Origin: a bacterium
Lineage (GTDB): Bacteria; RBG-13-61-14; DATKZS01
NCBI GenBank assembly: GCA_963674965.2
Contig: CAXXFL010000001.1
Location: 512,001-576,000 of the forward strand
DNA length: 64,000 bases
Direction of reading: 5' to 3'
Both the position numbers and the translations under genes were made by a program. Shown piece after piece: positions 2,094 through 35,815 of the stretch. The notes beneath the pieces were generated by a model that made no database searches, was not told the DNA's origin, and worked only from the letters and a program-made list of their open reading frames with translations. The stretch's first letter is position 1, and each line of letters begins with the position of its first letter.

Positions 2094-2154
2094 AGATTGT
2101 CGAAAATCACGCGGCCTGGGCGCCGCCGCTAACTGAAAGAAGCGGTAAAAAAGG

Positions 2155-2445
2155 TTAAGGCGCCCGAAAGTCAGGCGAGCAACCGGATACCCACCCTGTA
2201 AGGATATCCATGAGGCTCGGCCGCCGGGAGTTCTCACAGGAGGTCACCTCGGCAGCGTGACGGTTGCCGTCAGGCAATTCCGCGTAAAGAACGCCCTGCC
2301 TGCCAGGAGAGATGCCCGCCGAGCAGAAAGCGCCTATCGAACTTTCCTGAAAGTCCGAAATCTCGACGAAAGAAGCGGAGCCGTCTTTCGAAAAGATGGC
2401 CCTCACATTGCGAGACTTGTCACTAAAATTAATTTTTTCAGCCAC
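2155..2445 (-). CDS. Small hypothetical protein, possibly a degenerate PilZ-like beta-barrel
   Basis: GTG start directly abuts the sulfatase TAA; 96 aa. Confidence 0.4.
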   Translation of the reverse strand: MAEKINFSDKSRNVRAIFSKDGSASFVEISDFQESSIGAFCSAGISPGRQGVLYAELPDGNRHAAEVTSCENSRRPSLMDILTGWVSGCSPDFRAP

Positions 2446-4401: not shown

Positions 4402-4584
4402 AATTAATCGACCGTGATTGTCGGATGAAGTTCACGGCCCCCAGGGCACAATACCCTATTTTGGCGAAAAATTCCTTTGGAAGCAAAGGCTTTTATTTTT
4501 TTCTTCCATGGGCGGCAAGTGCCTATGCCTCGCCTTTTCCGTGCAATTTGCCCGCGCCGGTCTTTTCCAGTATCCTTTATTGAA

Positions 4585-5865
4585 ATGGATTGGTTTATTT
4601 TAAGTGAAACCGCGTTCAAGGCCGCGGTGATTTTTTATCTTATCGCCGCGGGCCTTTATCTTTTATTTTTAGCCCGCCGGAACGAGAAAGTTGGTGGGAC
4701 CGCCACCCTGGTGGCGATGGCGGCGGTAATCTTTCACACGCTGGGCCTGGCTTTCAGGTGGATTCAGGGGGGGATCGCCCATCCGCCCTTTACCAACCTT
4801 TACGAGTCCCTTTTGTTTTTTTCCTGGGGAATCGCCGTTTTCTACCTGGCCATCGAGAGGAAATACAAGTTCAAGGCGGGAGGCGCCTTTATTATTCCCG
4901 TTTCTCTTGGCGCCATCGGCGCGGCCGTGCTCAATCCCGCCGGCTCGAAAGAGATTCAAAACCTCCTGCCCGCGCTTCAATCTTACTGGTTGCACGCGCA
5001 CGTGGCGGTGGCGGCCATGGCTTACGCCGCCTTCGTGGCCAGTTTCGGGGCGTCCCTCATGTTCCTTATCAAGGACGGAGTGGACAGGAAATGGCTCGGC
5101 CATTACTCCAACCTTTTCATGGCCTTCATGCTCCTTATCTGTGACCGCTTGAATATTATAAGACACGGGGTTTTCACGCTGAACCAGGTTTCTCCCGATG
5201 GGAGCGTGACGGGACAACTGGTCGGCCTGGCCGTGCCCGGAAAGCTCCTGGCCATGGCCGTGGTTTATTTCATTATCGCGGCCGTTCTTTACGTGTGGCT
5301 GGCGAAAAAGGACGCCGAGTCCGGAAACCGTCTTTCCATCCTGGGCGTGCCCTTCGCGCCCATGGTGACGCTGATCGGCTCGGCCTCGACCGCCCTGGCC
5401 CTTTTGTTCCTGGTGAAACAGGCCCATGCCCGACCCGACCTGGCCCTGTTCGGCAACCCCTTTAAAATCATTATATTGTGCCTCGTCATCTTCATGGGGG
5501 TGGCCACATCGGTAATCGATTTGGCCCTCGAGCGAATTCAGGAAATCCTGCCGCCGGCCGAGACCCTGGACTCGATGTGCTACTCGATAATCACCATAGG
5601 TTTCCCCCTTATGACCGCCGTGATCGTCACCGGCATGGTATGGGCCAAGTACGCTTTCGGCGAATATTGGCAATGGGACCCCAAGGAAACGGCCTCCCTT
5701 ATCACCTGGATAATCTACACTGGATACCTTCACGCCAAGGTCTCGCTGAACTGGACGCCGAGAAGGACGGCCGTAATTTCCATCATCGGCTTCGCCTCGG
5801 TGGTCTTTACATATCTTGGCGTAAACGTCATCGGTCCCGGGTACCACGCCTACGCGTCTTTTTAA
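4585..5865 (+). CDS. ccsA: System II cytochrome c biogenesis protein CcsA/ResC (CcsB in deltaproteobacterial naming)
   Basis: HPPFTNLYES, LPALQSYWLHAH, WWD motif FGEYWQWDPKET, GYHAY; ATG at 4585 preferred over upstream TTG. Confidence 0.9.
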   Translation: MDWFILSETAFKAAVIFYLIAAGLYLLFLARRNEKVGGTATLVAMAAVIFHTLGLAFRWIQGGIAHPPFTNLYESLLFFSWGIAVFYLAIERKYKFKAGGAFIIPVSLGAIGAAVLNPAGSKEIQNLLPALQSYWLHAHVAVAAMAYAAFVASFGASLMFLIKDGVDRKWLGHYSNLFMAFMLLICDRLNIIRHGVFTLNQVSPDGSVTGQLVGLAVPGKLLAMAVVYFIIAAVLYVWLAKKDAESGNRLSILGVPFAPMVTLIGSASTALALLFLVKQAHARPDLALFGNPFKIIILCLVIFMGVATSVIDLALERIQEILPPAETLDSMCYSIITIGFPLMTAVIVTGMVWAKYAFGEYWQWDPKETASLITWIIYTGYLHAKVSLNWTPRRTAVISIIGFASVVFTYLGVNVIGPGYHAYASF

Positions 5866-5923
5866 AAGGCCATCAATCATCTTATTCTTTAAACTCCCTT
5901 GATCATTAACGTTATTGGCTTAT

Positions 5924-5966
5924 CCGCCTCTTAGATCGGAGATGGGAAGAGGCGGTTTTCTCTTTT
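5924..5966 (+). terminator. Intrinsic terminator after ccsA
   Basis: ccgcctctt...aagaggcgg stem followed by ttttctctttt. Confidence 0.6.
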
Positions 5967-5987
5967 GAGACTTCGTGGTTTTCACTT

Positions 5988-6016
5988 TTGAAAAATGATC
6001 GGCCTTGTGCTATTAT
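5988..6016 (+). promoter_or_regulatory. Possible sigma70 promoter in the AT-rich region upstream of the chemosensory operon
   Basis: TTGAAA-N17-TATTAT with TG extended -10; lies far from the first gene. Confidence 0.3.
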
Positions 6017-6648
6017 TCGGTTAGTATTTCGTTAGCGGTAATACGCGCGGCGCATTATGCCATATTATTCCAATTTTCTTGCCTGGCATAATAATCGTAT
6101 CGGACGCGATCGATGCGTAACTTCTACTTTGTGCTTGCATCTTGACTTTTAACCGCAAAGTTATAATTTACTTTTTTCAGGGAACAGACTTCTTGCTTCA
6201 ATACGGATGAATCGAAGCGAGATGTGACCGTTTTATTTATAATCAGGTAGAAATCGATTCTGGGCCGTCCAGTGAACACTGGATATTGATAGGTCCGGCC
6301 ATATCGTAATTATTTTCTGGCTCGGAATCGAACCGATGGAAGGGGAAGGAGTTTGAATTGGCGTTGAATTTATTGCCAAAAGGAATATGAATTGCATGTT
6401 ATCGTTCAAGATAAGAAAAAAAATGGTCTTGGGAATAGCGAAAGTGGCGATAGCTGTCTTTGTAAATGAGGTTATTTAAAGATATAAGTAACCGAAGTTA
6501 ATAAAATTTTATCCTTACTATTTACGAGGATTCTTTGAGTTTGCCCATAAGCAAGGATGCAATTTGCATTCAGGATTGAAAGCGAAATGCAATTATTGAG
6601 GTATTTTGATAATTGGCCGCTTACGCGCCGCGCCTGGGGATACCGCAA

Positions 6649-7143
6649 ATGGTAGACTGGACCAAAGGCGTGGAACAGGCCTCTCCGGCCGCGAGCCAGT
6701 ATCTGGTGATCGGCCAGGGGGAGAGGTATGTAGGGGTGGCCATCGACAACATTGTCGAGATAATCCGTATGGTTGCGCTTAGCTCGATCCCGGAGTCCTC
6801 GGATAAAGTGGCGGGCGTGGTCAACTACCGGGGAGATATCATACCCATTATCGACCTGTGGAGTCTCCTTGGAATCGCGACCCCTCCCGTGACCCCGGAC
6901 ATGGGGATAGTGATACTCTCCAAGGACGACGAGCAATTCGGACTGATGGCGGAAAACGTGCTCGACGTCAGGTCCCTCGAGGTTAAGCCAAGGCCGGACG
7001 AACTAAAGGACGACGTGGTATGGCCCATCGTCTCGGGGGTTTCCTATCTCGATGACGAGAAGGGCCTTTTACTCGTGCTCAACGCCGAGAGATTGAAGCG
7101 GCAGCAGGCGAGCGTCGCTCAAAGCCTGAGGCCGGCGGAATGA
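6649..7143 (+). CDS. cheW: CheW adaptor (WspB-like)
   Basis: VGVAIDNIVEII, GVVNYRGDIIPIIDL motif; start at ATG 6649 or TTG 6613. Confidence 0.88.
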   Translation: MVDWTKGVEQASPAASQYLVIGQGERYVGVAIDNIVEIIRMVALSSIPESSDKVAGVVNYRGDIIPIIDLWSLLGIATPPVTPDMGIVILSKDDEQFGLMAENVLDVRSLEVKPRPDELKDDVVWPIVSGVSYLDDEKGLLLVLNAERLKRQQASVAQSLRPAE

Positions 7144-8600
7144 CGATCGCGGCCATGTCCATGGAATTCGACGCCGATCTCCTGAACGGGGCGCTCGAGA
7201 CCATCGAGCGTTCCTATGGGCTTGAATTCCCCGCCTATAAAAGGGAGGAGGTCAAGTACAAGCTCAAGCTGGCCCAGATGGAATCGAGCCATCCCACCAT
7301 GCCGTCCTTTCTCGAGGCGGTCCGCGGCGGGACCCTGTCAAGGAAAGACCTGGACGCCCTGCTTAAAAACGTCACCGTGGGCGAGAGCTACTTCTTCAGG
7401 CACGACGAACAACTCGACGACGTGGCCGACCTGGTCGTTCCCGACGTAAGCTCGTCCCTTCCCGCCAGGAACGAGACGCTGAAAATCTGGTGCGCCGGGT
7501 GCGCCACCGGGGAGGAACCCTACTCCCTGGCCATCAAGCTGGAACAGAGGGCCTACGCCATCAACCGCCCTTACGAGATAGTCGGCACCGACCTCAACCC
7601 CATGGCCATCGAGAAAGCCATAAAAGGGACCTACGAGGCCTGGTCCATGCGCGACCTCGATCCGGACGTCATCAACGGATTCTTCGCCAGAAAAAACGGA
7701 AAATACGCGCTCAAAAGAAAAATCCGGAACATGGCAAGGTTCGAGAGACAAAACCTGGCGGGCATAATGACCTCTTCCCCCTTTGGGCACGGACCATTCA
7801 CCCATCTCATCCTTTGCCGCAACGTGATCTATTATTTCTCCCCCTCCCACGCGGAGAGGGCGGTACAGCGCTTTTACGAGTGCCTCGCCCCGGGCGGATA
7901 CCTGGTACTCAGCCCCAGCGAGTCGCTTCTCGAGTTCGAGCATCCCTTTCAGACCCTCAACCTTCCCCACGCCGCGGTCTATAGAAAAATGACCGACGCC
8001 GAGGAAAGAGAGGCGGCAAAAGAAGCGCTTGGCCGGGGCCGGAAGCCGGGCCGGAACGGGCCGCGAGCGAGGAGACGGCCACTTCACGCCGTCTATAAAA
8101 GGAAAGGACCCGACGAGCTCGAGCCTTCCCTGGCCATAAGCAGGGCCATGTGTTTTTACGACGGCGGGCAATGGAACCAGGCCCTCAAGGAACTCGAGCC
8201 CCTGGCCGGGAACCTGGACGCGGACCTGGCCCGGCTGGAAATCCTTCAGTCCCTTCACAACTCGGCCCTTCTGGACAACCATTGCGAATGGATGATAAAG
8301 AACCACCCGAGCCACGTCTCGGGCTATTACTGCCGGGCCCTCCTGGCCGCCGATGACGGCGACCTCAAGGAGGCCCTGTCCTGGCTGGGCAAGGTCATGT
8401 ACCTGGACTCCGACTTCGTTCCCGGCCACCTGCAACTGGCCGCGGTGTACGGGGCCATGGGGAAGCAGGAGGAGGCGGGTCGGGCGTGGCGAAGCGCCAA
8501 GACCATTCTTTCCCGCCTCTCCGGCGAGGTGCGGATACCCTTTACCAGGGGCGAGACGGCCGGGGACCTGCTCCGGCTTATAAGCTCGAGGGAGGATTAG
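7140..8600 (+). CDS. cheR: CheR methyltransferase with C-terminal TPR (WspC-like)
   Basis: ESYFFR, WCAGCATGEEPYS, GTDLN, LILCRNVIYYF; TPR-like C-terminus; ATGA overlap with cheW. Confidence 0.92.
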   Translation: MTIAAMSMEFDADLLNGALETIERSYGLEFPAYKREEVKYKLKLAQMESSHPTMPSFLEAVRGGTLSRKDLDALLKNVTVGESYFFRHDEQLDDVADLVVPDVSSSLPARNETLKIWCAGCATGEEPYSLAIKLEQRAYAINRPYEIVGTDLNPMAIEKAIKGTYEAWSMRDLDPDVINGFFARKNGKYALKRKIRNMARFERQNLAGIMTSSPFGHGPFTHLILCRNVIYYFSPSHAERAVQRFYECLAPGGYLVLSPSESLLEFEHPFQTLNLPHAAVYRKMTDAEEREAAKEALGRGRKPGRNGPRARRRPLHAVYKRKGPDELEPSLAISRAMCFYDGGQWNQALKELEPLAGNLDADLARLEILQSLHNSALLDNHCEWMIKNHPSHVSGYYCRALLAADDGDLKEALSWLGKVMYLDSDFVPGHLQLAAVYGAMGKQEEAGRAWRSAKTILSRLSGEVRIPFTRGETAGDLLRLISSRED

Positions 8601-8603
8601 CGA

Positions 8604-9155
8604 GTGACGTCGGAGGAGTTCCTGAAAATACGTCTGGCCGACCCGGCCGACGAGGAGGTCCTGAAACGGAGGGCCGAGCAGCTCGCCAGGTCCTCCCGCG
8701 TGGAGGAGGAAAGGCAAGAGGGCGTTCACGCCCTGGTGCTCTCCGTGGGGGGCGAGAGATACGCCGTCGAGCTTCCCTATATATGGGAGGTCCTTCCCGC
8801 GGCCGAGTCCACGCCAGTTCCGGGAGTTTCCGACATGGTGAGGGGCGTAATAAAGTTCAGGGGAGAAGTGGTCCCCCTTTACGACCTCCTGGGCATAGTG
8901 ACGGGAAGGCCCCAGGAAAAAGAGCCCAAGGGCTCCCACGTGGTGTTCGGACTTGGCCAGATAGACTTCGCCGCGGCGGTGGACGGCCTCGAGCCGCCGG
9001 TAAGGATCAACCCCGAGACCCTGCGGGACTCGGTGAGCAGCCCCGGCGACAGAGGCTATTCCTACGTCCAGGGTTTCACCGAGGACGGTGTGGTGGTCCT
9101 TAACATGAAGGCCATTTTAAACGACGAGTCTCTAATCGTGGACGACGAGACATAG
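8604..9155 (+). CDS. cheW: Second CheW adaptor (WspD-like)
   Basis: [12 protein letters not shown]-terminal helix, [24 protein letters not shown]. Confidence 0.88.
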
Positions 9156-9178
9156 GACGTCCGGCAAGGAGAGGTAAT

Positions 9179-10756
9179 ATGTTATTACGGCTACTTAGAA
9201 AATTCTCGATCGTGACCCAGCTTCTGACGCTGGCCCTGACCATCGTGGCCCTGTTCGCGGTGCCCTCGGTCTGGTATTTCTATTACAAGTACAACGACCA
9301 GTCCATAGAAAGCCTCAAGAACAAGTCGAGTTCCATCGCCCGCATCCTGGCGGTGAACGTGTCCGCGGGGGTCGAGTTCTCGGATTCCCAGACCATCGAG
9401 CAGCTCGTGTCCGGCGTTTCCCAGGACCCCATGATAGCGGCCGTTTACGTGTTCGACGCCAAGGAGGTGCCTCTTGGGTCCTACGTCTCGGAGGGGGCCA
9501 AAGGGGCCCTTAGCCCCGAGGCCGCCTCCAACCTCCTGGGGGAAAAGGAAATAGTCTTCGACGAGACGAGGGGACTGGTAGTCGCGCAAAGGGACGTAAC
9601 CAACGCCAACGAGCGCATTGGAAGGCTCCTGCTTATCTCCTCGGCCGGCTTTACTCAGGAACAACTGCTCCAGACCCTTAAGGACGTGGGCGTGGTATAT
9701 CTCATCCTGCTGGCGGCCAACATGGTCATCGTGCTGATCCTGGCGCGGGCCTGGGTCAAGCCCATCGTGCAGGCCGCGGACATAGCCCACCGCATAGCGG
9801 AGGGGGACCTGAACGTTCCCAACCTGGAGGAGAGCGGCGACGACCAGATATCCAAGATGAGCGTGGCCATCAACGTGATGGTCAAGTCCCTTACCCATCT
9901 GCTGGCCAGGATCAACCAGTCCCACGAGTCCATCAAGAAAACCATCGCCGAAATCCAGACCTCGACGGTACAGCAAAGGCACGGCCTCGAGAACCAGGCC
10001 AGCGCCATCAGCGAGATAAGCACCACCATCAACCAGCTCAAGACCACCAGCAAGCAAAGCGCCTCCATCGCCCAGCGCGTGCTGGACGACTCCGAGCGCT
10101 CGGTCGAGGTGTCCAAGGAGGGACTGACCAGCAACGACAAGGCCGTCTCCGGCATGGACCTTATCAACGACCAGATGGAGTCCATCGCCGAGTCCATCCT
10201 CAGCCTCTCCGAGAGAAGCCAGCAGATAGTGGACATCGTGGCCACCGTCAACGACCTGGCCCAGCAGTCCAACTACCTGGCCCTTAACGCCTCCATCGAG
10301 GCCGCCAAGGCCGGAGAGCACGGCAAGGGCTTCGCCGTCGTGGCCATGGAGGTAAGGAACCTGGCCGAGCAAAGCCAGCAGGCCACCGCCCAAATAAGGA
10401 ACATACTGAACGAGATTCAAAGCAACATGAACGCCGCCGTGCTGGTCACCGAGAACGGGACTCAAAAGGTGACCGAGGGGGTCGACCTGATCCGAAGCAC
10501 CGGCGACGTCATCAACCAGCTCGCCAACGTGGTCAACCAGGGGGCGTCCTCGGCCCGGCAGATTTCTTCCTCCGCCAACCAGCAGTCGCTCGGCGTGGAC
10601 CAGATCGCCCAGGCCATTACCGCCATCAGCCAGACCATGAACGAGACCACCAACAGCGCCAAGCAGCTCGAGAGGGCCGCCGAGGGGCTATCCGAGGTGG
10701 CCGAGCTTATGACCGACGCCATTGAAAACTACGCCTCCAAGAGGAGCCAGAGCTGA
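9179..10756 (+). CDS. Methyl-accepting chemotaxis protein: TM-CHASE8-like sensor-TM-HAMP-signalling domain
   Basis: [30 protein letters not shown] hairpin tip; two TM helices; HAMP (IAEGDL...DQISKM); periplasmic [16 protein letters not shown]...[11 protein letters not shown]. Confidence 0.93.
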
Positions 10757-10760
10757 GTAA

Positions 10761-13061
10761 ATGAACGACGACGACATCATAAAGCAGCTTCTGCCCCTGT
10801 TCCGGGACTCGGCCGGCTCGGCCGTCCTCCAGGCCAACAGGACGCTGCTTCTGCTCGAGGCCTCCGAGCTGCCCGACTCGGTCAGGACGGACTCGACCAA
10901 CGAGCTGCTCCGGATACTGCACACCCTCAAGGGCGACTCGGGCTCCGTGGGCCTGGACGAGGTGGTGACCCTGTCCCATGAGATCGAGTCGTCCATGAAG
11001 GCGGTCAAGACTGAAAAGGGCATCCCCCCCGGCCTTCCCGTTTACGGGACCTGGTTCGCGGCCCTGGACAAGCTGGCCGAAATCGCCACCCAGGAATACG
11101 ACCGGGAAAGGGTCCAAAAAGAGATCGAGGAAATAAAGGAAAGACTGGCCGGGTCGGGGGGCGACGTCGCTGATCGAGGCGAGGCCCCCTCAGCCGCCGA
11201 GCGCAAAAGCGGGGAGGGACCCCCGTCGAAAACCCCGGCGGAAGAGAGCGGGCGCGAGCGCTTCCGCCGCGAGGCCCCGGAGCGGGGTGACGAGGTGGTG
11301 CGGGTGTCCTTTCGGCGCCTCACGGGCCTGACCGAGAGCATGAGCGAGTTGCTTTCCGCCCGTATTTTAAGCGAGCAGCGTCTTCACGACCTGCAGGAGG
11401 ACGCGCGCGAGCTTCTGTCCCGACACCAGGAATGGAGCAAAACGGGCCAGCGCTTCATGAACTCGATGAGCAGGTCCTACCGGCAGGGCTTCATGGACAA
11501 GGAGGCCTTCCAGGAACTGAAGGAAAAGTACAAGGAAATGGACGCCGCCGGCCAGGCTATAAAGAGGACCGGCCAGGGCATGCTGGGTTCCCTCCAGACC
11601 GCCCACAAGCAGGTGCGTCACACGGGGACGGTGATGAGGACGCAGGAGGAAAACCTGCGAGGTCTCCAGATGACGCCGGTGGCCGACCTTTTCGCCTCCT
11701 TCCACCGCTGGGTCCGGGACGCGGCCCTCGAGCTGGGCAAGAAGATCGAGTTCAAGACGGAGGGCGAGTCGGTCGAGCTCGACCGCTCCATCGTGCAAAG
11801 ACTGAGGGAGCCCCTTATACACCTTCTTCGCAACGCTCTTGACCACGGCGTCGAGACCCCCGAGGAAAGGTTGGCGGCGGGCAAGTCCGAGCGCGGCCTG
11901 GTGGCCCTCCGGGCCTTCGCCGCCGGCGGGGGCGTGGTGATCGAGGTCGAGGACGACGGCCGGGGCCTGGACACGGAGGTGATCGGAAGAGTAGCGGTCC
12001 AACGGGGCATGGTGGGGGAGGCGGAGGCGCGGAACATGAGCGAGAGGGCCGTGCAGTCATTGGCCTTCCAGCCCGGCTTCTCGACGCGGGGCAAGGTGTC
12101 CAAGATGTCGGGACGCGGCGTGGGCCTGGACGTGGTGACGGCCTGGGTCGAGGACCTTCGGGGCAGGGTCGAGTGGGATTCCAGCCCGGGCAAGGGACTC
12201 CTCATCAGGCTGAGGCTGCCCCTGACCATGGCCACCATCCAGGCGCTCATTACAAGAGTGGGCGGGCAGAAGTTCGCCATTCCCCACTCGGCGGTGGACC
12301 GGGTCCTCCGGGTCAAGACCAAGAGCCTGACCACGGTCGAGGGCAGGACCTCGATCATCCACGAGGGCCAGCCGGTCGAGCTTATTCCCCTGGCCGGACT
12401 TCTGGACATGGCGCCCAGCGAGGATGAGCACCCGGCCGAGATGGCGGTGGTTATCTCTTACGGAGCCCGCGGACCCAAGGGATGGATAGTGGACGATCTG
12501 CTCGGCGAGCAGGAGATCGTCATGAAGGACTTCACCCGCTTTTTTAAAAAGGTGAAGAACATGGCCGGCGCCGCTATCATCGGTAGTGGCGAGATAGTCA
12601 TGGTCCTCAACGCCGCCGACCTGCACCAGCGGAGCTCGGGCCTTCGGATGGACCCGGCGGGCCGGTCGGGCAAGGATCGCAAGGCGGGCGCGGCCAAGAA
12701 GGTTTTGGTGGTCGACGACTCTCTGATCACGCGGACCATGGAGCAACGCATTCTCGGCAAGGCCGGGTACGAGGTTGACGGGGCGCGCGACGGCAAGGAC
12801 GCCCTCGAGCGGATGGACAAAAACGACTACGACCTGGTGGTCAGCGACATGCAGATGCCCAGGATGGACGGGGCCGAGCTGACCCGCAATTTGAGAAAGG
12901 ACCCGCGTTACGCCGAGACGCCGGTCATCATCGTTTCCTTTTTGGACTCGGAGGAGGACAAGATGCGGGGCATGGAGGCCGGAGCCAGCGCCTACCTGAC
13001 CAAGAAACAATTCAACCAGGCCAGGCTCCTCGAGCTGGTCCAGCGCCTGATAGGTGGATAA
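10761..13061 (+). CDS. cheA: Hybrid CheA histidine kinase with C-terminal receiver (WspE-like)
   Basis: Hpt LHTLKG, HLLRNALDHG, DDGRG, GFST..VSKMSGRGVGLDVV, CheW domain, REC (VVDDS...DMQMP). Confidence 0.95.
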   Translation: MNDDDIIKQLLPLFRDSAGSAVLQANRTLLLLEASELPDSVRTDSTNELLRILHTLKGDSGSVGLDEVVTLSHEIESSMKAVKTEKGIPPGLPVYGTWFAALDKLAEIATQEYDRERVQKEIEEIKERLAGSGGDVADRGEAPSAAERKSGEGPPSKTPAEESGRERFRREAPERGDEVVRVSFRRLTGLTESMSELLSARILSEQRLHDLQEDARELLSRHQEWSKTGQRFMNSMSRSYRQGFMDKEAFQELKEKYKEMDAAGQAIKRTGQGMLGSLQTAHKQVRHTGTVMRTQEENLRGLQMTPVADLFASFHRWVRDAALELGKKIEFKTEGESVELDRSIVQRLREPLIHLLRNALDHGVETPEERLAAGKSERGLVALRAFAAGGGVVIEVEDDGRGLDTEVIGRVAVQRGMVGEAEARNMSERAVQSLAFQPGFSTRGKVSKMSGRGVGLDVVTAWVEDLRGRVEWDSSPGKGLLIRLRLPLTMATIQALITRVGGQKFAIPHSAVDRVLRVKTKSLTTVEGRTSIIHEGQPVELIPLAGLLDMAPSEDEHPAEMAVVISYGARGPKGWIVDDLLGEQEIVMKDFTRFFKKVKNMAGAAIIGSGEIVMVLNAADLHQRSSGLRMDPAGRSGKDRKAGAAKKVLVVDDSLITRTMEQRILGKAGYEVDGARDGKDALERMDKNDYDLVVSDMQMPRMDGAELTRNLRKDPRYAETPVIIVSFLDSEEDKMRGMEAGASAYLTKKQFNQARLLELVQRLIGG

Positions 13062-14108
13062 ATGATACGGGCCCTGGTAGTGGACGACTCCGATCTCATG
13101 CGCGAGATCATGACCCGCGCCCTCGAGACCGACCCGGACCTCGAGGTGGCGGCGGCGGCGGCGGACGGCAAGGAGGCCGTGCACATGGCCAAGAAATACC
13201 GTCCCGACGTCATCACCATGGACATCATGATGCCCCGCATGAACGGTCTCGACGCCACCCGGGTGATCATGGAGGAGACGCCCGTTCCCATCGTCATGGT
13301 CTGCGCCATCGGCGACAGCGAGGAGCAGCGCATCAGCTTCGAGGCCATGGAGGCGGGCGCGGTGTGGGTGGTCAAGAAACCCCGGGGACAGGCCACGGCC
13401 GACTGGGACACCTGGTCGCGCTCCCTTTGCCAGATCGTGAAGTCCATGGCCGAGGTCAAGGTGGTTTCCCGCCGCCCCTCCCGGGCTCCCAGGGCGGTGG
13501 ACGTCTCCACGGGGGTCGCGGTCGAGAAGACGCCCCGCGTCATAGCCATGGCCGCCAGCACCGGCGGGCCGACGGCCCTGAAAAGCGTGCTCGAGAAGCT
13601 GCCGGAGGACTTCGAGATACCCATTCTCGTCTGCCAGCACATAGCTCGAGGCTTCGTGGAGGGCATGGTCGAGTGGCTCAACTTCGACCTCGAGCTGCCC
13701 GTCCGGGTGGGGGCCACCAACGACGCGGTACGGCCCGGCGTCACCTTCGCCCCCGACCACGGCAACCTTCTCGTTACCAGGGACGAGAGGCTTATCGTGC
13801 AGCCGGCGGAGGGCGACGAGAAATATATTCCCTCGGCCGACGCGCTTTTCGAGTCGGTGGCCAGGCATTACAAGTGCGAGTGCGTGGGCGTCATCATGAC
13901 CGGAATGGGGACCGACGGAGCGGCCGGCCTCAAAAAGATATGGGACGAGGGCGGCATCACCGTGGCCCAGGACGAGGCGTCGTCTTTAATCTACGGAATG
14001 CCGGGGGCCGCCGTTAAGGCGGGAGGCGTCAAATATAAAATGGACCCCGAGGAAATAGCCCGGATGCTTATTAAGCTTCCGCGCACGGAGGACAGGAAAG
14101 CGGTTTGA
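13062..14108 (+). CDS. cheB: CheB methylesterase with N-terminal receiver (WspF-like)
   Basis: REC (VVDDS, DIMMP), ASTGGP, QHI, MTGMGTDG, QDEASS..YGMP. Confidence 0.95.
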   Translation: MIRALVVDDSDLMREIMTRALETDPDLEVAAAAADGKEAVHMAKKYRPDVITMDIMMPRMNGLDATRVIMEETPVPIVMVCAIGDSEEQRISFEAMEAGAVWVVKKPRGQATADWDTWSRSLCQIVKSMAEVKVVSRRPSRAPRAVDVSTGVAVEKTPRVIAMAASTGGPTALKSVLEKLPEDFEIPILVCQHIARGFVEGMVEWLNFDLELPVRVGATNDAVRPGVTFAPDHGNLLVTRDERLIVQPAEGDEKYIPSADALFESVARHYKCECVGVIMTGMGTDGAAGLKKIWDEGGITVAQDEASSLIYGMPGAAVKAGGVKYKMDPEEIARMLIKLPRTEDRKAV

Positions 14109-14203
14109 AAGAAGGAAAAAGCGCCGCCGGGAAAAACTCTCTTGCGGCTTGAAATAAAGGAACTTGGCAAAGCCTGATATTGCAATATGAAAAGGAGAAG
14201 GAA

Positions 14204-14773
14204 ATGAGGCTGAATTTACGTTTGGTAGTGGTAATGGCGACGCTCGCGGCCCTTGGCGCCGCGGCTGGCGCGGCGGCCGAGCAGTCGCTTCCCGCCGACC
14301 TTACCGCCGCTCTTACCCTGAAGGTCCTCACCTTCGACCGGAATTTGACGGAGCGGGCCCAGGGCGAGGTGCTGGTGGCGGTCGTGTACGCCGAGGCCGA
14401 CGCGGGCTACGCCGACGACCTGAAAAAGGGGTTCGAGGCCTTCGCGGACAAGAAGGTCAATGGGCTTTCGGTCCGCTGCGTGACCCACAAGTTCGTCGAC
14501 CTGGCCGAGCTGTCGGGATGGATGGAGACGCAAAAGGTTTGCGTGCTTTTCCTGTCGCCGGGAATGCTGGGGCAGGCGGCGCAGCTGCATGGACTGGCGG
14601 TCGAGAAGAAGTGCCTGACCGCGGGGGGCGACGCCCGCTTCCCGGAGAAGGGCACGGCGCTTGGGTTCGAGATAGCGGACGGCAAGCCCAAGATCGTGGT
14701 CCATCTTAACCGCTCCAAGGAGGAGGGGGTCAATTTCGCGGCGACCCTTCTCCAAATGGCGCGAGTCATCTAA
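14204..14773 (+). CDS. YfiR/HmsC-family periplasmic protein
   Basis: Signal peptide; GFEIADGKPKIVVHL and C-terminal VNFAATLLQMARVI are typical of the YfiR family; RBS aggag. Confidence 0.8.
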   Translation: MRLNLRLVVVMATLAALGAAAGAAAEQSLPADLTAALTLKVLTFDRNLTERAQGEVLVAVVYAEADAGYADDLKKGFEAFADKKVNGLSVRCVTHKFVDLAELSGWMETQKVCVLFLSPGMLGQAAQLHGLAVEKKCLTAGGDARFPEKGTALGFEIADGKPKIVVHLNRSKEEGVNFAATLLQMARVI

Positions 14774-14791
14774 GAGCAAAGGAGAATCGAC

Positions 14792-16897
14792 ATGGCGCGA
14801 ACCAAGGGTTGGATTCGCTTCCGGAGATGGTCTCTCCTCCTTGCCCTCGTCCTGACGCTGCCGGCTTTCGGCGCGGCTAAGGCTCAGGCGACGGCGGCGG
14901 AGGACGAGTTCGAGGACTTCTCGGAGATCGCCCTCGAGGAGCTTTTAAACGTCACGGTCATATCGGCGTCCAAGCTCGAGCAGGACTTGAGCGACTCGCC
15001 CAACGCCATCTGGGTGATCACGGCCGAGGACATCAGGCGGGCGGGCGTCCGTACCATTCCCGAGGCCTTAAGCCTGGCCCCCGGCGTCTACGTGGCCCGC
15101 ATGTACGGCACCAAGTGGGTCGTCACCATCGGAGGCTTCGCCTTCAACAACTACTCGAACAAGCTCCTGGTCCTGGTCGACGGGGTCAGCCAGTACGCCC
15201 CCCTCTTCGGCGGCGTCGAGTGGGAGTACTTCCCCGTGGGCATAGACGAGGTCGAGAGGATCGAGGTGATAAGGGGAACGGGCGGAGTGCTCTACGGGGC
15301 CAACGCGGCCAACGGCGTTATCAACATTATTACCAAGTCGCCCTCCCGCGAGCCCTCGAGCTACGTCAACGTGAGGGGCGGGACCCAAAGCCTGCGCGAG
15401 ACCAACGCGGGCGCCAACCTTTCCACCGACGACGGCGTGATATCGGCCCGGCTGGCCGTGACCTACACCGAGGACGAGGGGTTCGGCATGAAGAATGGAG
15501 AAACCATTCAGGACGGCAAGAACTTCCACGTCGTTTCCCTGCGGACCTCCATCGCCCCTACCGAGTCGGCACTTATCAGCCTGGACGCCAGGTACCGGGG
15601 CGGCCCCTTCGAGACGCCGAACGTTTCGACCGCCAAGCCGGAGGTGTGGAAAAACCTGGAGAACGCCTTTTACCGGGCCAGGTGGGACCAGACCCTGGAC
15701 TCGGGGGCCCAGTTCTATATCCAGTCCTATTACTGGCGCATGCTGCTCCAGGAAAGGGACGACACCGCCAGGTACGAGGACTCGGAGGACTCGGAAATCG
15801 CCGACGTCGAGTTCCAGGCCATGGTTCCCTTCGAGGCGGCCGGGTCGCACCGTTTCATCTTCGGCGGCGGCTACCGGACGATCAGGGACGAGCAGTTTAT
15901 CCTCAAGGACGGCGAGCAGGACTACACCGTGGCCAACGGTTATTTCCACGACGAGTGGAGCTTTAACGACCAGTGGAGCCTGAACGCCGGGCTCAAGTAC
16001 GAGTCCATAAGCCTGGTGGACCCGACCTGGCAGTGGAGAGGGGCAATACTGTACCAGCCCACCCGGGAACACGGCTTCAGGCTGGCCGCCTCGAACGCCT
16101 ACAGGTCCCCAGCCCTCACCGAGATGTACCAGAACATAGGGGCCGAGCTGCCCGACGCCCTGGTACCTCTCCTGGCTGGAAGCTGGCCCACTCCTCCTCC
16201 TTACTACATCGTGCAGGTGCTCGGGAACGAGGACCTGGAGCCCGAGCAGATACTTTCCTACGAGGCCGGCTACAGGGGCATTTGGTTCGACAGGATGAAA
16301 ATAGACGTGAGTTACGCCTACAAGCAGTACGACAACCTCATCTCCTTTTATCTGGCGGACGAGGGATTCTACGTGACTCCTCCTTTCCCGCCCACTCCCT
16401 TCGGGCCCTTCGGCCTGGTCTATGGCTATTCCCAGCAGGGAGAAGCCACCAGCCAGAACCTGGACGTGGGCATAAGCGCCAGGATTACGAGGTCCTTTAG
16501 GGTGCTGGCCAACTACTCTCACGTGGACATAGAAGTGGACGGGCCCAACGCCTTCGAGGGGTTCGAGAAGAACTCTCCCGAGAACTACGGTATGATCGGC
16601 CTGGGCTACACCCACGAGAGGGGCTTCATGGCCGACGTCTCGGCTTACTACGTGGACGAGATCGAGATTTTCAACGCCGAGGACCCGACGGCCCCTCCCT
16701 TCAAGATCGACGCCTACTGGCGCCTGGACGCCAGGCTGGCCCAGTCGGTGAAGATGAGGGACGGAGAACTCGAAATCGGCGTGGTGGGCACGAACCTTGC
16801 TGATGAATGGCATGAGGAATACGTGGATTTCTCACAGGACGTCGATCCATTTCAAGTCAGGACGGGATACTACGGGTATATCGAATACCGGAGGTAA
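14792..16897 (+). CDS. TonB-dependent receptor of the type found beside yfiR genes
   Basis: Signal peptide; ALEELLNVTVISASK; plug motif VERIEVIRG.GGVLYGANAANGVINIIT; beta-barrel with aromatic C-terminus. Confidence 0.92.
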   Translation: MARTKGWIRFRRWSLLLALVLTLPAFGAAKAQATAAEDEFEDFSEIALEELLNVTVISASKLEQDLSDSPNAIWVITAEDIRRAGVRTIPEALSLAPGVYVARMYGTKWVVTIGGFAFNNYSNKLLVLVDGVSQYAPLFGGVEWEYFPVGIDEVERIEVIRGTGGVLYGANAANGVINIITKSPSREPSSYVNVRGGTQSLRETNAGANLSTDDGVISARLAVTYTEDEGFGMKNGETIQDGKNFHVVSLRTSIAPTESALISLDARYRGGPFETPNVSTAKPEVWKNLENAFYRARWDQTLDSGAQFYIQSYYWRMLLQERDDTARYEDSEDSEIADVEFQAMVPFEAAGSHRFIFGGGYRTIRDEQFILKDGEQDYTVANGYFHDEWSFNDQWSLNAGLKYESISLVDPTWQWRGAILYQPTREHGFRLAASNAYRSPALTEMYQNIGAELPDALVPLLAGSWPTPPPYYIVQVLGNEDLEPEQILSYEAGYRGIWFDRMKIDVSYAYKQYDNLISFYLADEGFYVTPPFPPTPFGPFGLVYGYSQQGEATSQNLDVGISARITRSFRVLANYSHVDIEVDGPNAFEGFEKNSPENYGMIGLGYTHERGFMADVSAYYVDEIEIFNAEDPTAPPFKIDAYWRLDARLAQSVKMRDGELEIGVVGTNLADEWHEEYVDFSQDVDPFQVRTGYYGYIEYRR

Positions 16898-16899
16898 AA

Positions 16900-17373
16900 A
16901 TGTCTAAGTATTTTGACCTGAGCGGGGCGAGCGATCCCCTGGACCGGACCAAGGGGTTCGTGCCCAGACGAAACCCCGACTCGGCTGGACGGGAAAACCC
17001 TCAGGGAAAACTTAAAAAAGTCCTGATCGTCGAGGATTCCCAGATACAGGCCGAGATGTACAGGCTCGTGTTCGCGACGGACAAGTGCAAAATCATATTC
17101 GCGGAAAACGGAAAAGAGGCCCTCGAGGTCCTCACCCGCGAACTCAACGTCGATCTTATCATTACCGACATTAACATGCCGGAAATGAACGGGATCGACT
17201 TCTTGACCATGGTCAGGAGGACCGGCTTGGCCAAATGCCCCATCATCGTCACCAGCACGCCGGAAAACAAGGACCTGCTCGAAAAGGCCGTCGAGTCCGG
17301 GGCCTCCTCGTATATGGTCAAGCCATGGGACTTAAGGGAGCTTCGAGCTCTGGTTAAAAGACTGGTCGGCTGA
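16900..17373 (+). CDS. Single-domain response regulator with ~38-aa N-terminal extension
   Basis: VLIVEDS, TDINMPEMNG, VKP motifs; 2 bp after the receptor stop. Confidence 0.88.
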   Translation: MSKYFDLSGASDPLDRTKGFVPRRNPDSAGRENPQGKLKKVLIVEDSQIQAEMYRLVFATDKCKIIFAENGKEALEVLTRELNVDLIITDINMPEMNGIDFLTMVRRTGLAKCPIIVTSTPENKDLLEKAVESGASSYMVKPWDLRELRALVKRLVG

Positions 17374-17660: not shown

Positions 17661-18179
17661 CTAGTAAAGCGACGTCTCCCAGGTGGCCGGGTCCGGTCCG
17701 TTATTGAAAAGGTTGCAATTGGAGATGGCGTTGGCTCTGGCGCTGGCCGTCAGCGTGCCCGTAGCCGATGTGTTTGAGGTATATTTCCCCTCGAAAGACC
17801 CGACTCCCACGCTTCCACATGTGCCTCCCGTCTCGGTCAGGGAGCCTTGAATATTCTTATCGGTCAGCGTTCCCGTTATGATAAAGGACCTCTCTATCCA
17901 AACCCCGCCTCCCGGAAAAGATATCTCCAAAGGTATGGTTATAGTCCCGGAGACGTTACCCTGGTCGTCAACCGTAAAGTTAAAGTTAGCGTCATCCGTA
18001 AATGGCGTATCTCTCCAGATAAAATGCACCGTCCCGGAATATGAGCCGGGTTGAGGCGTGATCTGAACTCCATTGTCTCCGCCGCTATCTCCTCCATCAT
18101 CCCCGCAACCCAATGCCAGGAAACAAACGCAAAACGCAAGGAACAAGAAAGACGCAAACCGTGCCGTGATAATTCTCAT
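17661..18179 (-). CDS. Hypothetical beta-rich lipoprotein
   Basis: Lipobox LALGC followed by a Gly/Asp linker; Gly/Thr-rich beta-strand pattern; RBS-like ggag upstream. Confidence 0.65.
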   Translation of the reverse strand: MRIITARFASFLFLAFCVCFLALGCGDDGGDSGGDNGVQITPQPGSYSGTVHFIWRDTPFTDDANFNFTVDDQGNVSGTITIPLEISFPGGGVWIERSFIITGTLTDKNIQGSLTETGGTCGSVGVGSFEGKYTSNTSATGTLTASARANAISNCNLFNNGPDPATWETSLY

Positions 18180-18367
18180 CGCCTCCACTCCTTTTGGTTA
18201 TGACCGTTATTTGCAGAAATTTTTCAATTCATTTGGGATTATTGCCCTCTATATTTCTTGGGAACCCAGGTAAAAAGAAATTCAAGCATAGGTGGCGTTA
18301 CTTGTCAATACAAATCACTATCAACAGAGCCTCTTGCAAAATTCCCGCTTTGGAGTGCGGCGGCTCG

Positions 18368-19815
18368 TGTACAGACCGGAGACATGCTTCACAAGTGTTC
18401 GGGCACATAGGTAACATATTTCCTCGCTTGCTCGCGCTCCTGCTATTGACCTATTTTTCCTCGACCTAAGTTTATCTATGCATCGATCACGTGGCCAGTC
18501 AAGGGCGGCGCAGCCGTCCCGCAGGGATTTACCCTTGACGGGCCTCGTGGAGATGCTATCGTCCTCATGGTCGAGAAAACCTTTTATCACGTTTGCCTCC
18601 AGCTATGGTCTCGCAGATCGACGACCATGATCCGTTGGCGGCAGTAATAAACCTCGATCACGCCGTCCACTTGTGTATTTCGCAAGCCGACCTTTTCACC
18701 AACGAAGGCCCGCCCCACCGGATAAAACTCGCCTTTGATTCTAACCGCCCCGCCCGGGTTCACCTTGCAAGTCGGCCAATCATCCCGATACCAGACTTCG
18801 GGCAGAGTCTCGGGATAGGCAAAGGGGCTCATCGCGTAACGGCTGGCCGGCGTGTTCATGTCCAGGGCCTCGTGGGGACGTTCATGGTTATAGCAGTCGC
18901 GAAAACGGTCGAAGGCTTTCTGACAGTCGTCCAGGTCGCCGAAGTTGCGTCCCCTTATCGCCTCCTCCTTAAGGGTCCGGTTGAACCGCTCGTTCTTGCC
19001 CTGGGTCTGGGGATGAAAGGGACGGCCGTGGCTGATGCCGACGCCGAGCCTGATCAGCCAGGCGCTCATGTAGTTGTAACGCGAGTTCGGCGCGCAGAAG
19101 CTCGATCCGTTGTCGGTAAGTATGCGGCTGGGCAGGCCGTAGCGCATGAAGACCGGCGCCAGGCTTGCCCGCACGGTGTCCGCCCGTTCGTTGGAGCAGG
19201 CGGTGACCGTCAACGCGAACCTGGAGTGGTCGTCCACCACGGTGAGAGGGTGACAGGAACCGGCCGCCGTCGGAAAATGTCCCTTGAAATCCATCTGCCA
19301 CAACTGGTTGGGAGCCTCTCGTTCGAAACGCTTCATGGGACCGCGAGCCTTGCGCTGGGCGTCCCGCAGCCTGCCGTTGCGGTCGAGGATCGCCGTGATC
19401 GTGCTCGGCCTTGGCACTTCGTCGTGACCAAGATCGATCAGCCGCCGCTCGATTTTGCGCCCTCCCCAGGTCGGATGCTCGTCGCGAACCGAAAGCACCA
19501 ACTGCTCGACCTCCGGGCAAACACGCTGGGGAGATCGCCTGGGACGGCGGGACCTGTCACATGCCCAGTCCTCTTCACCGCTTTGCCCACGGCTGATCCA
19601 CTTGTAGCCGGTGCGGCGACTGATACCGAATCGACGGCATAACTCGCTTATGTTGGAACCTGGCTGCATCGCTAAATAAACAAAATCCTTCCTCTGAGAC
19701 ACTTCGGTAACCTCATTCCATGGCATCTTTCTTCTCCTGTATTGACATACAGAAGAATGTACCAACTGTTACCCATGTCTCCGAACACCTGTTACCCATG
19801 TCTCCGGTCTGTACA
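18368..19815 (-). mobile_element. IS481-family insertion sequence, 1448 bp
   Basis: TGT...ACA ends; 19-bp perfect terminal IR tgtacagaccggagacatg extending imperfectly to ~50 bp; 4-bp target duplication CTCG at 18364-18367 and 19816-19819. Confidence 0.93.
18587..19726 (-). CDS. IS481-family DDE transposase
   Basis: MPW start, HTH (ELCRRFGISRRTGYKW), WQMDFKG, TDNG, PQTQGKNERFNRTLK, YNHERPH. Confidence 0.95.
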   Translation of the reverse strand: MPWNEVTEVSQRKDFVYLAMQPGSNISELCRRFGISRRTGYKWISRGQSGEEDWACDRSRRPRRSPQRVCPEVEQLVLSVRDEHPTWGGRKIERRLIDLGHDEVPRPSTITAILDRNGRLRDAQRKARGPMKRFEREAPNQLWQMDFKGHFPTAAGSCHPLTVVDDHSRFALTVTACSNERADTVRASLAPVFMRYGLPSRILTDNGSSFCAPNSRYNYMSAWLIRLGVGISHGRPFHPQTQGKNERFNRTLKEEAIRGRNFGDLDDCQKAFDRFRDCYNHERPHEALDMNTPASRYAMSPFAYPETLPEVWYRDDWPTCKVNPGGAVRIKGEFYPVGRAFVGEKVGLRNTQVDGVIEVYYCRQRIMVVDLRDHSWRQT

Positions 19816-20132
19816 CTCGACGCCGCTTTTCTTCCGAGCGGCTTGACGTGAGGCAAGCCGGCGTATTATTAGGCCTTGTCAAGCCAAGGCCATCGAAAGC
19901 GGTCTCAAGCGACCGCACTCCAAAGCGGCTATGCCGCAAAGAAAAGGACTTTTGCACAAAGCTCAACGTATAAATTATTCGACACAAAACGAAAATGACT
20001 TGGACCAGGTCTTTTTTACCGCTCCTGAATAAGCCCAAATTTTCTATTTCGCGTGATAAGCGAGGGATTCTATAACGCTTGTAAACGTCACCCCTCGAAG
20101 GAATTTCAAGTGACTCCACGAAAAAACCTTTT

Positions 20133-27664: not shown

Positions 27665-27846
27665 ATAGTCTCCCTTTCTTAAATTACGCCCCCTTACCCC
27701 CGATGGCAAGACGCGGGTGGAACGACTTCGACGAATGAATTGTCAGCTATAAGAAGATTGGCCTCGGGCGGCCTCTCGGAAGAATCCGGCCGCCGGAAAA
27801 ATAATCGGTTGAATCGGGGAGATTAGGGAGTAAAATTATAAATACC

Positions 27847-35798: not shown

Positions 35799-35815
35799 GG
35801 AAGGAGGAAATCCAG

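Follow-up and report, generated by a model that had tools for sequence, protein, structure and literature searches.

The window, a 64,000-nucleotide stretch of bacterial contig CAXXFL010000001.1, contains nine genes between positions 6649 and 17373, all on the + strand, which Pfam assigns in order to CheW, CheR-TPR, CheW, CHASE8-HAMP-MCP, CheA-REC, CheB, a YfiR-like protein with DUF4154, a TonB-dependent receptor (TBDR) and, last, a stand-alone receiver (Table 1). An initial annotation, made from the letters and translated ORFs, had described this run of same-strand genes. That observation is confirmed: 9/9 ORFs are present, the small gaps and overlaps that it reported are as described (-4, +3, +23, +4, 0, +95, +18 and +2 bp in operon order, from the ORF coordinates), and its domain assignments all proved correct in the Pfam HMM scan. 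Nine co-directional genes that combine a full Che domain set with the trio of CHASE8 sensor, YfiR-like protein and TBDR are not a chance pattern, and no paralogues of the MCP, CheW, CheR, YfiR-like or TBDR genes occur elsewhere in the window.

Table 1. Features of the chemosensory locus, in window coordinates
Feature	Position	Strand	Basis
Upstream intergenic region, AT-rich, ~730 bp	5881..6612		Sequence read
CheW-like coupling protein 1	6649..7143	+	Pfam CheW, E 6e-25
CheR methyltransferase with C-terminal TPR region	7140..8600	+	Pfam CheR, E 2.7e-41
CheW-like coupling protein 2	8604..9155	+	Pfam CheW, E 1e-19
Methyl-accepting receptor: TM1, periplasmic CHASE8, TM2, HAMP, MCP signalling	9179..10756	+	Pfam, hydrophobicity
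MCP periplasmic sensor domain, residues 37-168	9287..9682	+	Between two hydrophobic segments
CheA kinase with fused C-terminal receiver	10761..13061	+	Pfam Hpt, HATPase_c, CheW, Response_reg
CheB methylesterase, REC + esterase	13062..14108	+	Pfam methylesterase, E 1.7e-50
YfiR-like periplasmic protein, divergent DUF4154, signal peptide	14204..14773	+	Pfam DUF4154 'YfiR/HmsC-like'
TonB-dependent receptor (TBDR)	14792..16897	+	Pfam Plug E 2.2e-21, barrel E 1.4e-35
Stand-alone receiver, 157 aa	16900..17373	+	Pfam Response_reg 41-152, E 2e-26

Operon boundaries and the Che core

The longest ORF for the first cheW begins at TTG 6613, and 6649 is an in-frame ATG within it; the start of cheR overlaps the end of this gene by 4 bp. 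The upstream intergenic region is likely to hold the promoter and regulatory region of the operon. Consensus scanning found two sigma-70-like sites on the + strand, 5988-6016 and 6286-6313, which is weak evidence, since six sites were found versus 3.4 expected. Rfam searches of the whole window and of the upstream region returned nothing meaningful, and a riboswitch or small RNA in this gap was rejected because no Rfam family matches. The spacing between cheB and yfiR is +95 bp with the ATG start and +71 bp if yfiR begins at TTG; the same type of scan detected no + strand promoter-like or terminator-like site there, and an internal promoter that it overlooked could sit in the 95-bp gap. The receiver gene begins 2 bp past the TBDR gene, so that the yfiR-TBDR pair is flanked by Che genes on both sides. 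An IS481-family transposase lies at 18587-19765, 1.2 kb downstream of the operon.

Within CheA, Pfam delimits Hpt (residues 10-81), HATPase_c (349-489), CheW (494-623) and Response_reg (648-760) domains, and the translation contains an HTLKG histidine motif. CheB exceeds the cut-off of NF001965 (322.6 bits; cut-off 293). The TPR signal of CheR is weak, with TPR_2, TPR_17 and TPR_11 matching at residues 386-441, each under its own Pfam cut-off. The stand-alone receiver has no second Pfam domain, neither GGDEF nor kinase, and is likely the phospho-acceptor output of CheA. Its candidacy as an orthologue of cassette-linked receivers was discarded: the ~30% identity to each REC of the REC-GGDEF protein at locus L074 is generic.

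The designation "Wsp-type" in the initial annotation stands for composition only. An MCP, two CheW proteins, CheR, a CheA-REC fusion and CheB are shared with Wsp systems as far as these are described in the accessible text of PMC8552884, according to which synteny is high in the Wsp operon and every Wsp system terminates in either WspR or WspH. The gene order does not fit, being cheW-cheR-cheW-mcp-cheA-cheB rather than wspA-B-C-D-E-F; the terminal output is a bare receiver instead of WspR (REC-GGDEF) or WspH (REC-kinase), and the sensor is CHASE8.

Sensor, periplasmic protein and outer-membrane receptor

The receptor has hydrophobic segments at residues 8-36 and 166-200. Its CHASE8 domain (residues 45-152) is well over the Pfam cut-off (E 7.4e-11, 42.6 bits; cut-off 27), and is followed by HAMP (188-239) and MCPsignal (317-485, E 7.5e-41) domains; the output is thus MCPsignal, with no GGDEF in the Pfam scan. 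The N-terminal part also matches the NCBIfam models NF053592 (sensor histidine kinase, YfiR-like protein-associated; E 1.6e-15, 57.3 bits, under the cut-off of 194) and DgcN/YfiN (E 1.7e-9), and it aligns with the kinase sensors of cassette loci (alignment A3); the CHASE8-like sensor named by the initial annotation is borne out. The nearest named clusters in the ESM Atlas are ordinary HAMP-MCPs, mostly of Myxococcota, with no CHASE8-MCP cluster, and plasmid tblastn with the sensor part, or with the YfiR-like protein, gave no match. We propose that residues 37-168 are the target of the YfiR-like protein. A complex prediction for this segment with YfiR-like residues 27-189, run with separate alignments and without control runs, scored 0.00, which speaks neither for nor against binding.

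The longer YfiR-like ORF begins at 14180 (TTG), whereas the database copy begins at ATG 14204 and encodes 189 aa with a hydrophobic N-terminus at residues 3-26. DUF4154 is recognized by Pfam (E 1.5e-7, 32.1 bits; cut-off 24.9), and NF053591 matches at E 2.4e-6 and 27.6 bits, under its cut-off of 125. Searches of the PDB with the single sequence returned no solved YfiR at E <= 1, and a profile search returned no YfiR and only weak binding-protein matches. Foldseek comparison of the AF2 model (pLDDT 93.8) with Pseudomonas aeruginosa YfiR (4yn7, 4yn9, 5eb1 and 4zhu) gave TMq of 0.60-0.62 and TMt of 0.74-0.75 at ~16% identity in the structural alignment; the best E-values went not to YfiR but to single-domain substrate-binding proteins (5z6v and 6k1x, E ~4e-8). 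Based on the model, the small periplasmic protein is predicted to have the YfiR fold.

The TBDR has a signal peptide (hydrophobic N-terminus, residues 13-33), a Plug domain at 66-176 and a TonB_dep_Rec_b-barrel at 283-654 (Pfam). An N-terminal signalling extension is lacking: no STN match was obtained at E <= 0.01, and residue 66 is where the plug begins. The best NCBIfam family is NF053590 (TOL_0244) at 282.2 bits, under the cut-off of 645 and ahead of a runner-up at 122 bits, and the closest solved structure is Cir (69.6 bits). FastTree places the TBDR in a 15-row clade of its own (support 100), whose other 14 members have no visible gene context, separate from an 82-row clade that includes all rows labelled yfiR-adjacent except L002_4681_6978. 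A contig profile search with the TBDR alignment A1 retrieved relatives that are 26-34% identical and, in addition, one fragment with 49% identity (L074), which lies at a contig end downstream of a triple-REC-GGDEF gene, not a che gene.

The trio in other genomes and in known systems

A same-strand YfiR-like ORF adjoins the TBDR relative in 50/75 loci fetched and is absent from the other 25, some of which are cut by contig ends. Pfam detected DUF4154 in 41/59 scanned loci and a neighbouring CHASE8 sensor in 39/59; with 3 more from a further scan, the 42 CHASE8 sensors comprise 38 histidine kinases, 1 GGDEF protein, 3 truncated proteins and no MCP. The sensor part of the window MCP alone matches sensors in 34/76 loci. 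Pairs of TBDR and yfiR are tandemly duplicated as units in four loci (L002, L062, L069 and L070), and in L046 the pair accompanies a CHASE8-HAMP-GGDEF protein, which indicates a module that can be moved from one output to another. Record titles for the kinase-linked cassette name Acidobacteriota, Verrucomicrobiota, Planctomycetota, Nitrospirota and Bacteroidota, as well as Armatimonadota, Methylomirabilota, Desulfobacterales/Geobacter and several Proteobacteria classes; its carriers include cultured strains, such as Methylomonas sp. TEB (L035), Lysobacter sp. CFH 32150 (L009) and Endozoicomonas atrinae (L040), so it is open to study. TBDR, YfiR-like protein and CHASE8 sensor are therefore a widespread trio, conserved in many phyla, whose sensor is normally a (hybrid) histidine kinase, and the initial annotation was right to treat them as one set.

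The Che-coupled form is a different matter. The neighbourhoods of TBDR relatives showed the trio with its CHASE8 sensor repeatedly, but MCP signalling domains, CheW or CheR in 0/76 related loci, which leaves conservation of this form unsupported; one CHASE8-MCP besides that of the window was found. Coupling of the trio to an MCP and Che core is thus rare. Gene order differs as well: 48/50 loci elsewhere have TBDR-yfiR-sensor, while the window has the sensor first and then yfiR-TBDR.

The input module itself is not new, because the trio is widespread and NCBIfam already models a kinase-linked version of it through three linked families, NF053590 (TOL_0244 family TBDR), NF053591 (TOL_0243 family YfiR-like periplasmic protein) and NF053592, a type of trio found in about 50 loci. 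Like that trio, the window combines TBDR, DUF4154 protein and CHASE8-type sensor in one same-strand cluster (within 9179-16897), and its three proteins match these models best or specifically, yet all fall under the cut-offs. The window further differs in having an MCP in a Che operon in place of a kinase, yfiR preceding the TBDR gene, the sensor 3.4 kb upstream, and a TBDR from a separate clade. Our literature search found no publication on the trio and agrees with the earlier statement that no characterized system merges the two pathways.

YfiBNR of P. aeruginosa (YfiB, YfiR and YfiN/DgcN), as presented in the accessible part of PMC4655355, similarly unites a periplasmic DUF4154/YfiR-fold protein, an inner-membrane CHASE8-HAMP sensor and an outer-membrane partner. 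The output there is the GGDEF domain of YfiN rather than MCP/Che, the partner is the Pal/OmpA-like lipoprotein YfiB rather than a TBDR, and the window protein is only ~16% identical to YfiR in the structural alignment. Scans of the nine genes and of flanking ORFs detected no OmpA-like domain.

Signalling from an outer-membrane TBDR across the periplasm to an inner-membrane protein is familiar from FecA-FecR-FecI, and transducers of the FecA type use an N-terminal TBDR signalling domain together with an anti-sigma factor. The window TBDR is without such an extension, and its go-between would be the soluble YfiR-like protein. MBP and Tar offer another parallel, in which an MCP receives the stimulus at its periplasmic domain from a soluble periplasmic protein; the window would share such a go-between but has another fold and another receptor domain, and no dedicated TBDR stands alongside MBP-Tar. 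For a TBDR acting upstream of a chemotaxis response, Alcanivorax dieselolei OmpS and Thalassolituus oleivorans TOL_0244 together form a precedent; on n-C28 the latter was sevenfold up, and it has been compared with OmpS (40.3% similarity; PMC6304351). The accessible portion of that source mentions no YfiR-like or CHASE8 partner, and the window TBDR scores under the TOL_0244 family cut-off; for a ligand, TOL_0244 points to long-chain alkanes as one lead.

Proposed signalling route and its alternatives

On balance we favour, with moderate confidence, a non-flagellar-type chemosensory operon whose sole receptor is fed by the TBDR, the YfiR-like protein and its own CHASE8 domain as a trans-envelope module; the initial interpretation is in this sense partly supported. 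Since the trio elsewhere usually feeds histidine kinases, the envelope-sensing module here appears to be wired to the Che pathway. An event at the TBDR would alter the hold of the YfiR-like protein on the receptor; this protein would bind the CHASE8 domain and set the receptor's signalling state, by analogy with YfiR and YfiN. The MCP would then control CheA via the two CheW proteins, CheA would pass phosphate to its fused REC, to CheB and to the stand-alone receiver, and CheR and CheB would supply methylation-based adaptation. For the input step, we consider delivery of a TonB-dependent substrate to the periplasm, where the binding-protein-like YfiR fold would sense it, a likelier event than a TBDR that simply sequesters YfiR. 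Several observations weigh against the model: all three proteins score under their NCBIfam cut-offs (282 vs. 645, 27.6 vs. 125 and 57.3 vs. 194), the TBDR falls outside the yfiR-adjacent clade, the gene order is unlike that of 48/50 loci, 0/76 loci have MCP/CheW/CheR and 25/75 no adjoining YfiR-like ORF, the 95-bp gap may hold an internal promoter, and the YfiR-like protein has no sequence match to a solved YfiR at E <= 1 and scores its best Foldseek E-values against binding proteins.

The sequestration reading, which follows the initial annotation literally and which we consider rather unlikely, gives the TBDR the part of YfiB: once activated, it would hold the YfiR-like protein captive at the outer membrane, lifting the repression of the CHASE8-MCP, and no YfiR ligand would be needed. 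YfiBNR provides the precedent, since outer-membrane YfiB sequesters YfiR there (PMC4655355, accessible part); no YfiB/OmpA-like gene is present in the operon or the flanks scanned, and TBDR-yfiR adjacency in 50/75 loci with co-duplication of the pair in 4 would fit a specific protein pair. However, the TBDR has neither a signalling extension nor STN, its plug starting at residue 66, where the signal peptide and TonB-box region have just ended, and the likeness of the YfiR-like fold to ligand-binding proteins is no weaker than its likeness to YfiR; TBDRs and YfiB share no common fold, so the analogy between them is functional only. It is still less probable, indeed very doubtful, that the YfiR-like protein itself senses redox or envelope stress in the periplasm, a role that has been suggested for YfiR of P. 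aeruginosa, with the TBDR as co-expressed cargo or a downstream beneficiary (e.g., uptake co-induced with a behavioural response). The PDB holds oxidized and non-oxidized forms of YfiR (4yna and 4yn7) and the window translation has three cysteines, but the 70-sequence alignment A2 has no cysteine among its nearly invariant columns, and the tight, phylogenetically broad pairing of TBDR and yfiR, together with their pairwise duplication, argues that the TBDR is an input part and not cargo.

The yfiR-TBDR pair could also be a passenger, a nutrient-uptake pair that landed in or beside a che operon whose CHASE8 domain senses something unrelated. The 95-bp gap ahead of yfiR, the IS481-family transposase 1.2 kb downstream, the lack of che genes in all 76 related loci and the distance of the window TBDR clade from the cassette clade would all suit such an origin. 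We nevertheless hold it to be highly improbable: the MCP has the exact sensor type seen with TBDR-yfiR pairs elsewhere (42 CHASE8 sensors, and the NF053592 match), which makes a chance meeting of all three unlikely, and the receiver gene, starting 2 bp beyond the TBDR gene, shows the pair to be embedded in the operon rather than appended to it.

Beyond the favoured model for this operon, we tentatively raise a broader possibility, for which our confidence is low: TBDR, YfiR-like protein and CHASE8 may form a general trans-envelope signalling route distinct from FecA/anti-sigma signalling, in which the TBDR would inform CHASE8 receptors of the inner membrane about substrate passage or occupancy, with a soluble protein of YfiR fold as messenger. 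In most lineages such a route would drive hybrid kinases, next to which c-di-GMP enzymes or lone receivers are encoded, and here a complete, adapting Che pathway; the window version adds CheR/CheB methylation adaptation to the trio input, which the kinase versions are without. If this general reading is true, the organism would mount a behavioural response to substrates unable to diffuse across the outer membrane. If the trio works as we suggest, it would offer a testable explanation of how compounds that depend on TonB to cross the outer membrane are perceived by sensors of the inner membrane, among them chemoreceptors, and the YfiR paradigm would reach far past c-di-GMP control in Pseudomonas.

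Operon Layout and Compartments

ORF listing and Pfam confirm the nine-gene set read in the initial annotation, cheW-cheR(TPR)-cheW-mcp-cheA(REC)-cheB-yfiR-TBDR-REC (Table); the CHASE8, DUF4154 and TonB-dependent receptor (TBDR) domains expected from it were likewise recovered by HMM scans. Intergenic spacings along the genes are -4, +3, +23, +4, 0, +95, +18 and +2 bp. A consensus scan of the cheB-yfiR gap found no promoter-like or terminator-like site on the + strand, which weakly favors a single transcript across this gap. The operon is preceded by an AT-rich gap of 730 bp and, before it, a cytochrome c assembly gene; on the 3' side lie a convergent ORF and then an IS481-family transposase.

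Hydropathy scans place residues 37-168 of the methyl-accepting chemoreceptor (MCP) between membrane segments at 8-36 and 166-200 and reveal N-terminal signal-like segments, at 3-26 in the YfiR-like protein and at 13-33 in the TBDR. A signaling extension is a feature of FecA-type TBDRs; the plug of the window TBDR begins at residue 66 (Pfam), and the protein therefore lacks such an extension. The translation of the stand-alone receiver shows the usual acidic pocket and the threonine and lysine positions.

Elsewhere in the window, the 591-aa ORF carries in its C-terminal region a weak UbiA prenyltransferase match (27.7 bits, cut-off 34.2) and may, from its sequence, be an IspH/LytB-UbiA fusion. 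The extra N-terminus of the acetolactate-synthase-like ORF is either a long extension or a too-early start call.

Table. Features of the window and of genome loci recovered with TBDR relatives (L handles)
Source	Position	Strand	Feature	Details
Window	6649-17373	+	Nine-gene operon	
Window		+	Gene 1, CheW	Pfam
Window		+	Gene 2, CheR	Pfam; C-terminal TPR region weak
Window		+	Gene 3, CheW	Pfam
Window		+	Gene 4, MCP	Pfam; CHASE8 (residues 45-152; 42.6 bits, cut-off 27), HAMP, MCPsignal
Window		+	Gene 5, CheA	Pfam; Hpt, HATPase, CheW, fused REC
Window		+	Gene 6, CheB	Pfam
Window		+	Gene 7, 'YfiR/HmsC-like' protein	Pfam; DUF4154, 32.1 bits, cut-off 24.9
Window		+	Gene 8, TBDR	Pfam; plug and barrel
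Window		+	Gene 9, stand-alone receiver	Pfam; 157 aa
Window	17661-18188	-	Small unassigned ORF	near transposase
Window	18587-19765	-	IS481-family transposase	rve, rve_3, LZ_Tnp_IS481, HTH domains; 1.2 kb past operon end
Window	19769-20119	-	Small unassigned ORF	near transposase
Window	25934-27709	-	591-aa ORF	full IspH/LytB domain (18-292), C-terminal region
Window	30183-32057	+	Adenylate/guanylate cyclase, first of tandem	FHA-GAF-cyclase
Window	32129-33709	+	Adenylate/guanylate cyclase, second of tandem	GAF-cyclase
Window	35195-37543	+	Acetolactate-synthase-like TPP enzyme	~210 residues ahead of first TPP domain
L070	7283-14999		Tandem TBDR-yfiR pairs	
L002	4681-15482		Tandem TBDR-yfiR pairs	
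L069	9977-15416		Tandem TBDR-yfiR pairs	
L062			Tandem TBDR-yfiR pairs	
L046 (Geobacter sp. UBA4074)	2038-7266		CHASE8-HAMP-GGDEF (YfiN-like) gene and TBDR-yfiR pair	
L074	2549-4045	-	PilZ fused to sigma-54 activator	PilZ, Sigma54_activat, HTH_8
L021, L031, L032, L035, L054, L074			REC-GGDEF neighbors	
L001, L009, L064			REC...GGDEF-EAL neighbors	
L038, L065, L075			REC-HD (HD_5) neighbors	
L008, L011, L034, L043, L047, L051			Lone receiver neighbors	

The TBDR, YfiR-Like Protein and CHASE8 Sensor Form a Widespread Cassette

NCBIfam holds three linked models, the TOL_0244 family TBDR, the TOL_0243 family YfiR-like periplasmic protein and the "sensor histidine kinase, YfiR-like protein-associated." Against the first, the window TBDR reaches 282 bits (next family, 122 bits); the YfiR-like protein matches the second at E 2.4e-6, and the MCP N-terminus matches the third (E 1.6e-15) as well as DgcN/YfiN (E 1.7e-9); none of the three reaches the curated NCBIfam cut-offs.

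A contig scan with an alignment of 27 TBDR homologues matched 610 stretches, 591 of them relatives, and the best 80 of these relatives gave 76 loci. Within this set, a YfiR-like ORF detected by an HMM of the YfiR-like alignment is adjacent and on the same strand in 50 of the 75 loci with a TBDR hit (47 at E < 1e-5), and in 48 of these 50 the TBDR gene precedes yfiR. Looser criteria give 54 of 76, and Pfam contributes L037, L050 and L071. Pfam analysis covered 107 downstream ORFs, drawn from 59 loci, of which 41 have DUF4154 and 39 a CHASE8 sensor; the other 17 loci are 9 whose TBDR ORF was lost to an overlapping ORF during ORF selection, 1 without a TBDR hit and 7 (mostly contig ends) without a downstream + strand ORF. 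With three further sensors (L046, L048, L062), the 42 CHASE8 sensors are 38 kinases (many of them hybrids carrying REC and Hpt), one CHASE8-HAMP-GGDEF protein (L046) and three cut by contig ends. The trio is thus a known, widespread cassette, and the earlier view of the input module as unprecedented was wrong, although literature searches on YfiR with TBDR or CHASE8, DUF4154, CHASE8 with chemoreceptors, and TOL_0243/TOL_0244 found no study of the trio.

Tandem TBDR-yfiR pairs precede one CHASE8 kinase, e.g., TBDR-yfiR-TBDR-yfiR-HK in L070, which suggests several inputs into one sensor. L046, where the GGDEF gene lies 1.5 kb 5' of the TBDR-yfiR pair, is a diguanylate-cyclase form of the cassette with the TBDR in place of YfiB; its GGDEF match ends at profile position 81 of 161, and the ORF may be broken. 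All three Endozoicomonas loci (L015, L040, L057) carry a subtilase (Peptidase_S8) gene immediately 5' of their cassette TBDR; in L015 a cadherin-repeat protein is also encoded on the 3' side. The PilZ fusion of L074 is encoded near REC-GGDEF and TBDR genes.

Rarity of the Che-Coupled Version and Divergence of the YfiR-Like Protein

The neighborhood recurs as TBDR, yfiR and CHASE8 sensor but not with an MCP as that sensor, which Pfam found in 0 of the 42 (loci from the best 80 of 591 relatives). By phmmer, the MCP sensor part matches sensors of 34 of the 76 loci, and the MCP signaling part, both CheW proteins and CheR have no match in these loci from the best 80 of 591 relatives. A word-indexed search with MCP residues 1-240 returned one other protein only, P0273, a CHASE8-HAMP-MCP of 521 aa with 45% identity over that region. 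In an unrooted tree of 102 TBDRs built by the quick method FastTree, the window TBDR groups only with database proteins, none with visible gene context, in a clade of 15 rows (support 100); a separate 82-row clade (support 99) takes in 55 of the 56 rows labeled with an adjacent yfiR. The contigs of P0003 (YfiR-like) and P0007 (TBDR) are both 4922 bp, which hints at a second window-type yfiR-TBDR pair, and P0006, a 49% paralogue, sits on the window's own 1.6-Mb contig. Judged by sequence, the MCP/Che coupling of the trio appears to be a rare new variant.

Three close relatives share 53-57% identity with the YfiR-like protein, and an exhaustive HMMER search returned 1744 representatives at E <= 1e-3, only 4 of them at E <= 1e-30. 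DUF4154 is matched by 69 of its 70 closest relatives, weakly (best E 3e-15, Pfam), whereas E values for the YfiR-like proteins of the loci are mostly 1e-51 to 1e-28, with a few much weaker; this difference argues for membership in a divergent subfamily. A single-sequence search found no sequence-level match in the PDB, and a profile search with a 70-sequence alignment gave binding-protein matches only, all weak. The AlphaFold2 model from the same alignment is confident (pLDDT 93.8), and Foldseek matches it both to P. aeruginosa YfiR structures (E ~1e-4, TMq 0.60-0.62, TMt 0.74-0.75) and to single-domain substrate-binding proteins from Rhodothermus marinus (E ~4e-8, TMt 0.64). On this dual match the protein has a YfiR fold, and that fold is itself binding-protein-like.

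Proposed Signal Path

Sequence analysis establishes the components, the compartments they occupy and the fact that TBDR, YfiR-like protein and CHASE8 sensor are conserved together; on the model of YfiBNR (PMC4655355), the YfiR-like protein would bind the CHASE8 domain and set the sensor state. For the step from TBDR to YfiR, the initial annotation gave the TBDR the role of YfiB, so that by analogy it would sequester the YfiR-like protein. We favor delivery of a substrate to the binding-protein-like YfiR fold, because this fold resembles ligand-binding proteins and the TBDR has no signaling extension, both of which argue against sequestration; the pairwise duplication of TBDR and yfiR is compatible with either. 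The proposed input trio was right in spirit, but "Wsp" and YfiB-like sequestration were over-specific. PMC6304351 reports a sevenfold rise of TOL_0244 on n-C28 and likens this protein to Alcanivorax dieselolei OmpS, which PMC9788540 describes as the alkane sensor and chemotaxis trigger.

Beyond the delivery step that we favor, the Che paradigm and the description of Wsp in parts of PMC8552884 suggest that the MCP and the two CheW proteins would govern CheA, which would phosphorylate CheB and a receiver, with receptor adaptation through CheR and CheB; the output of the pathway would be the lone receiver.
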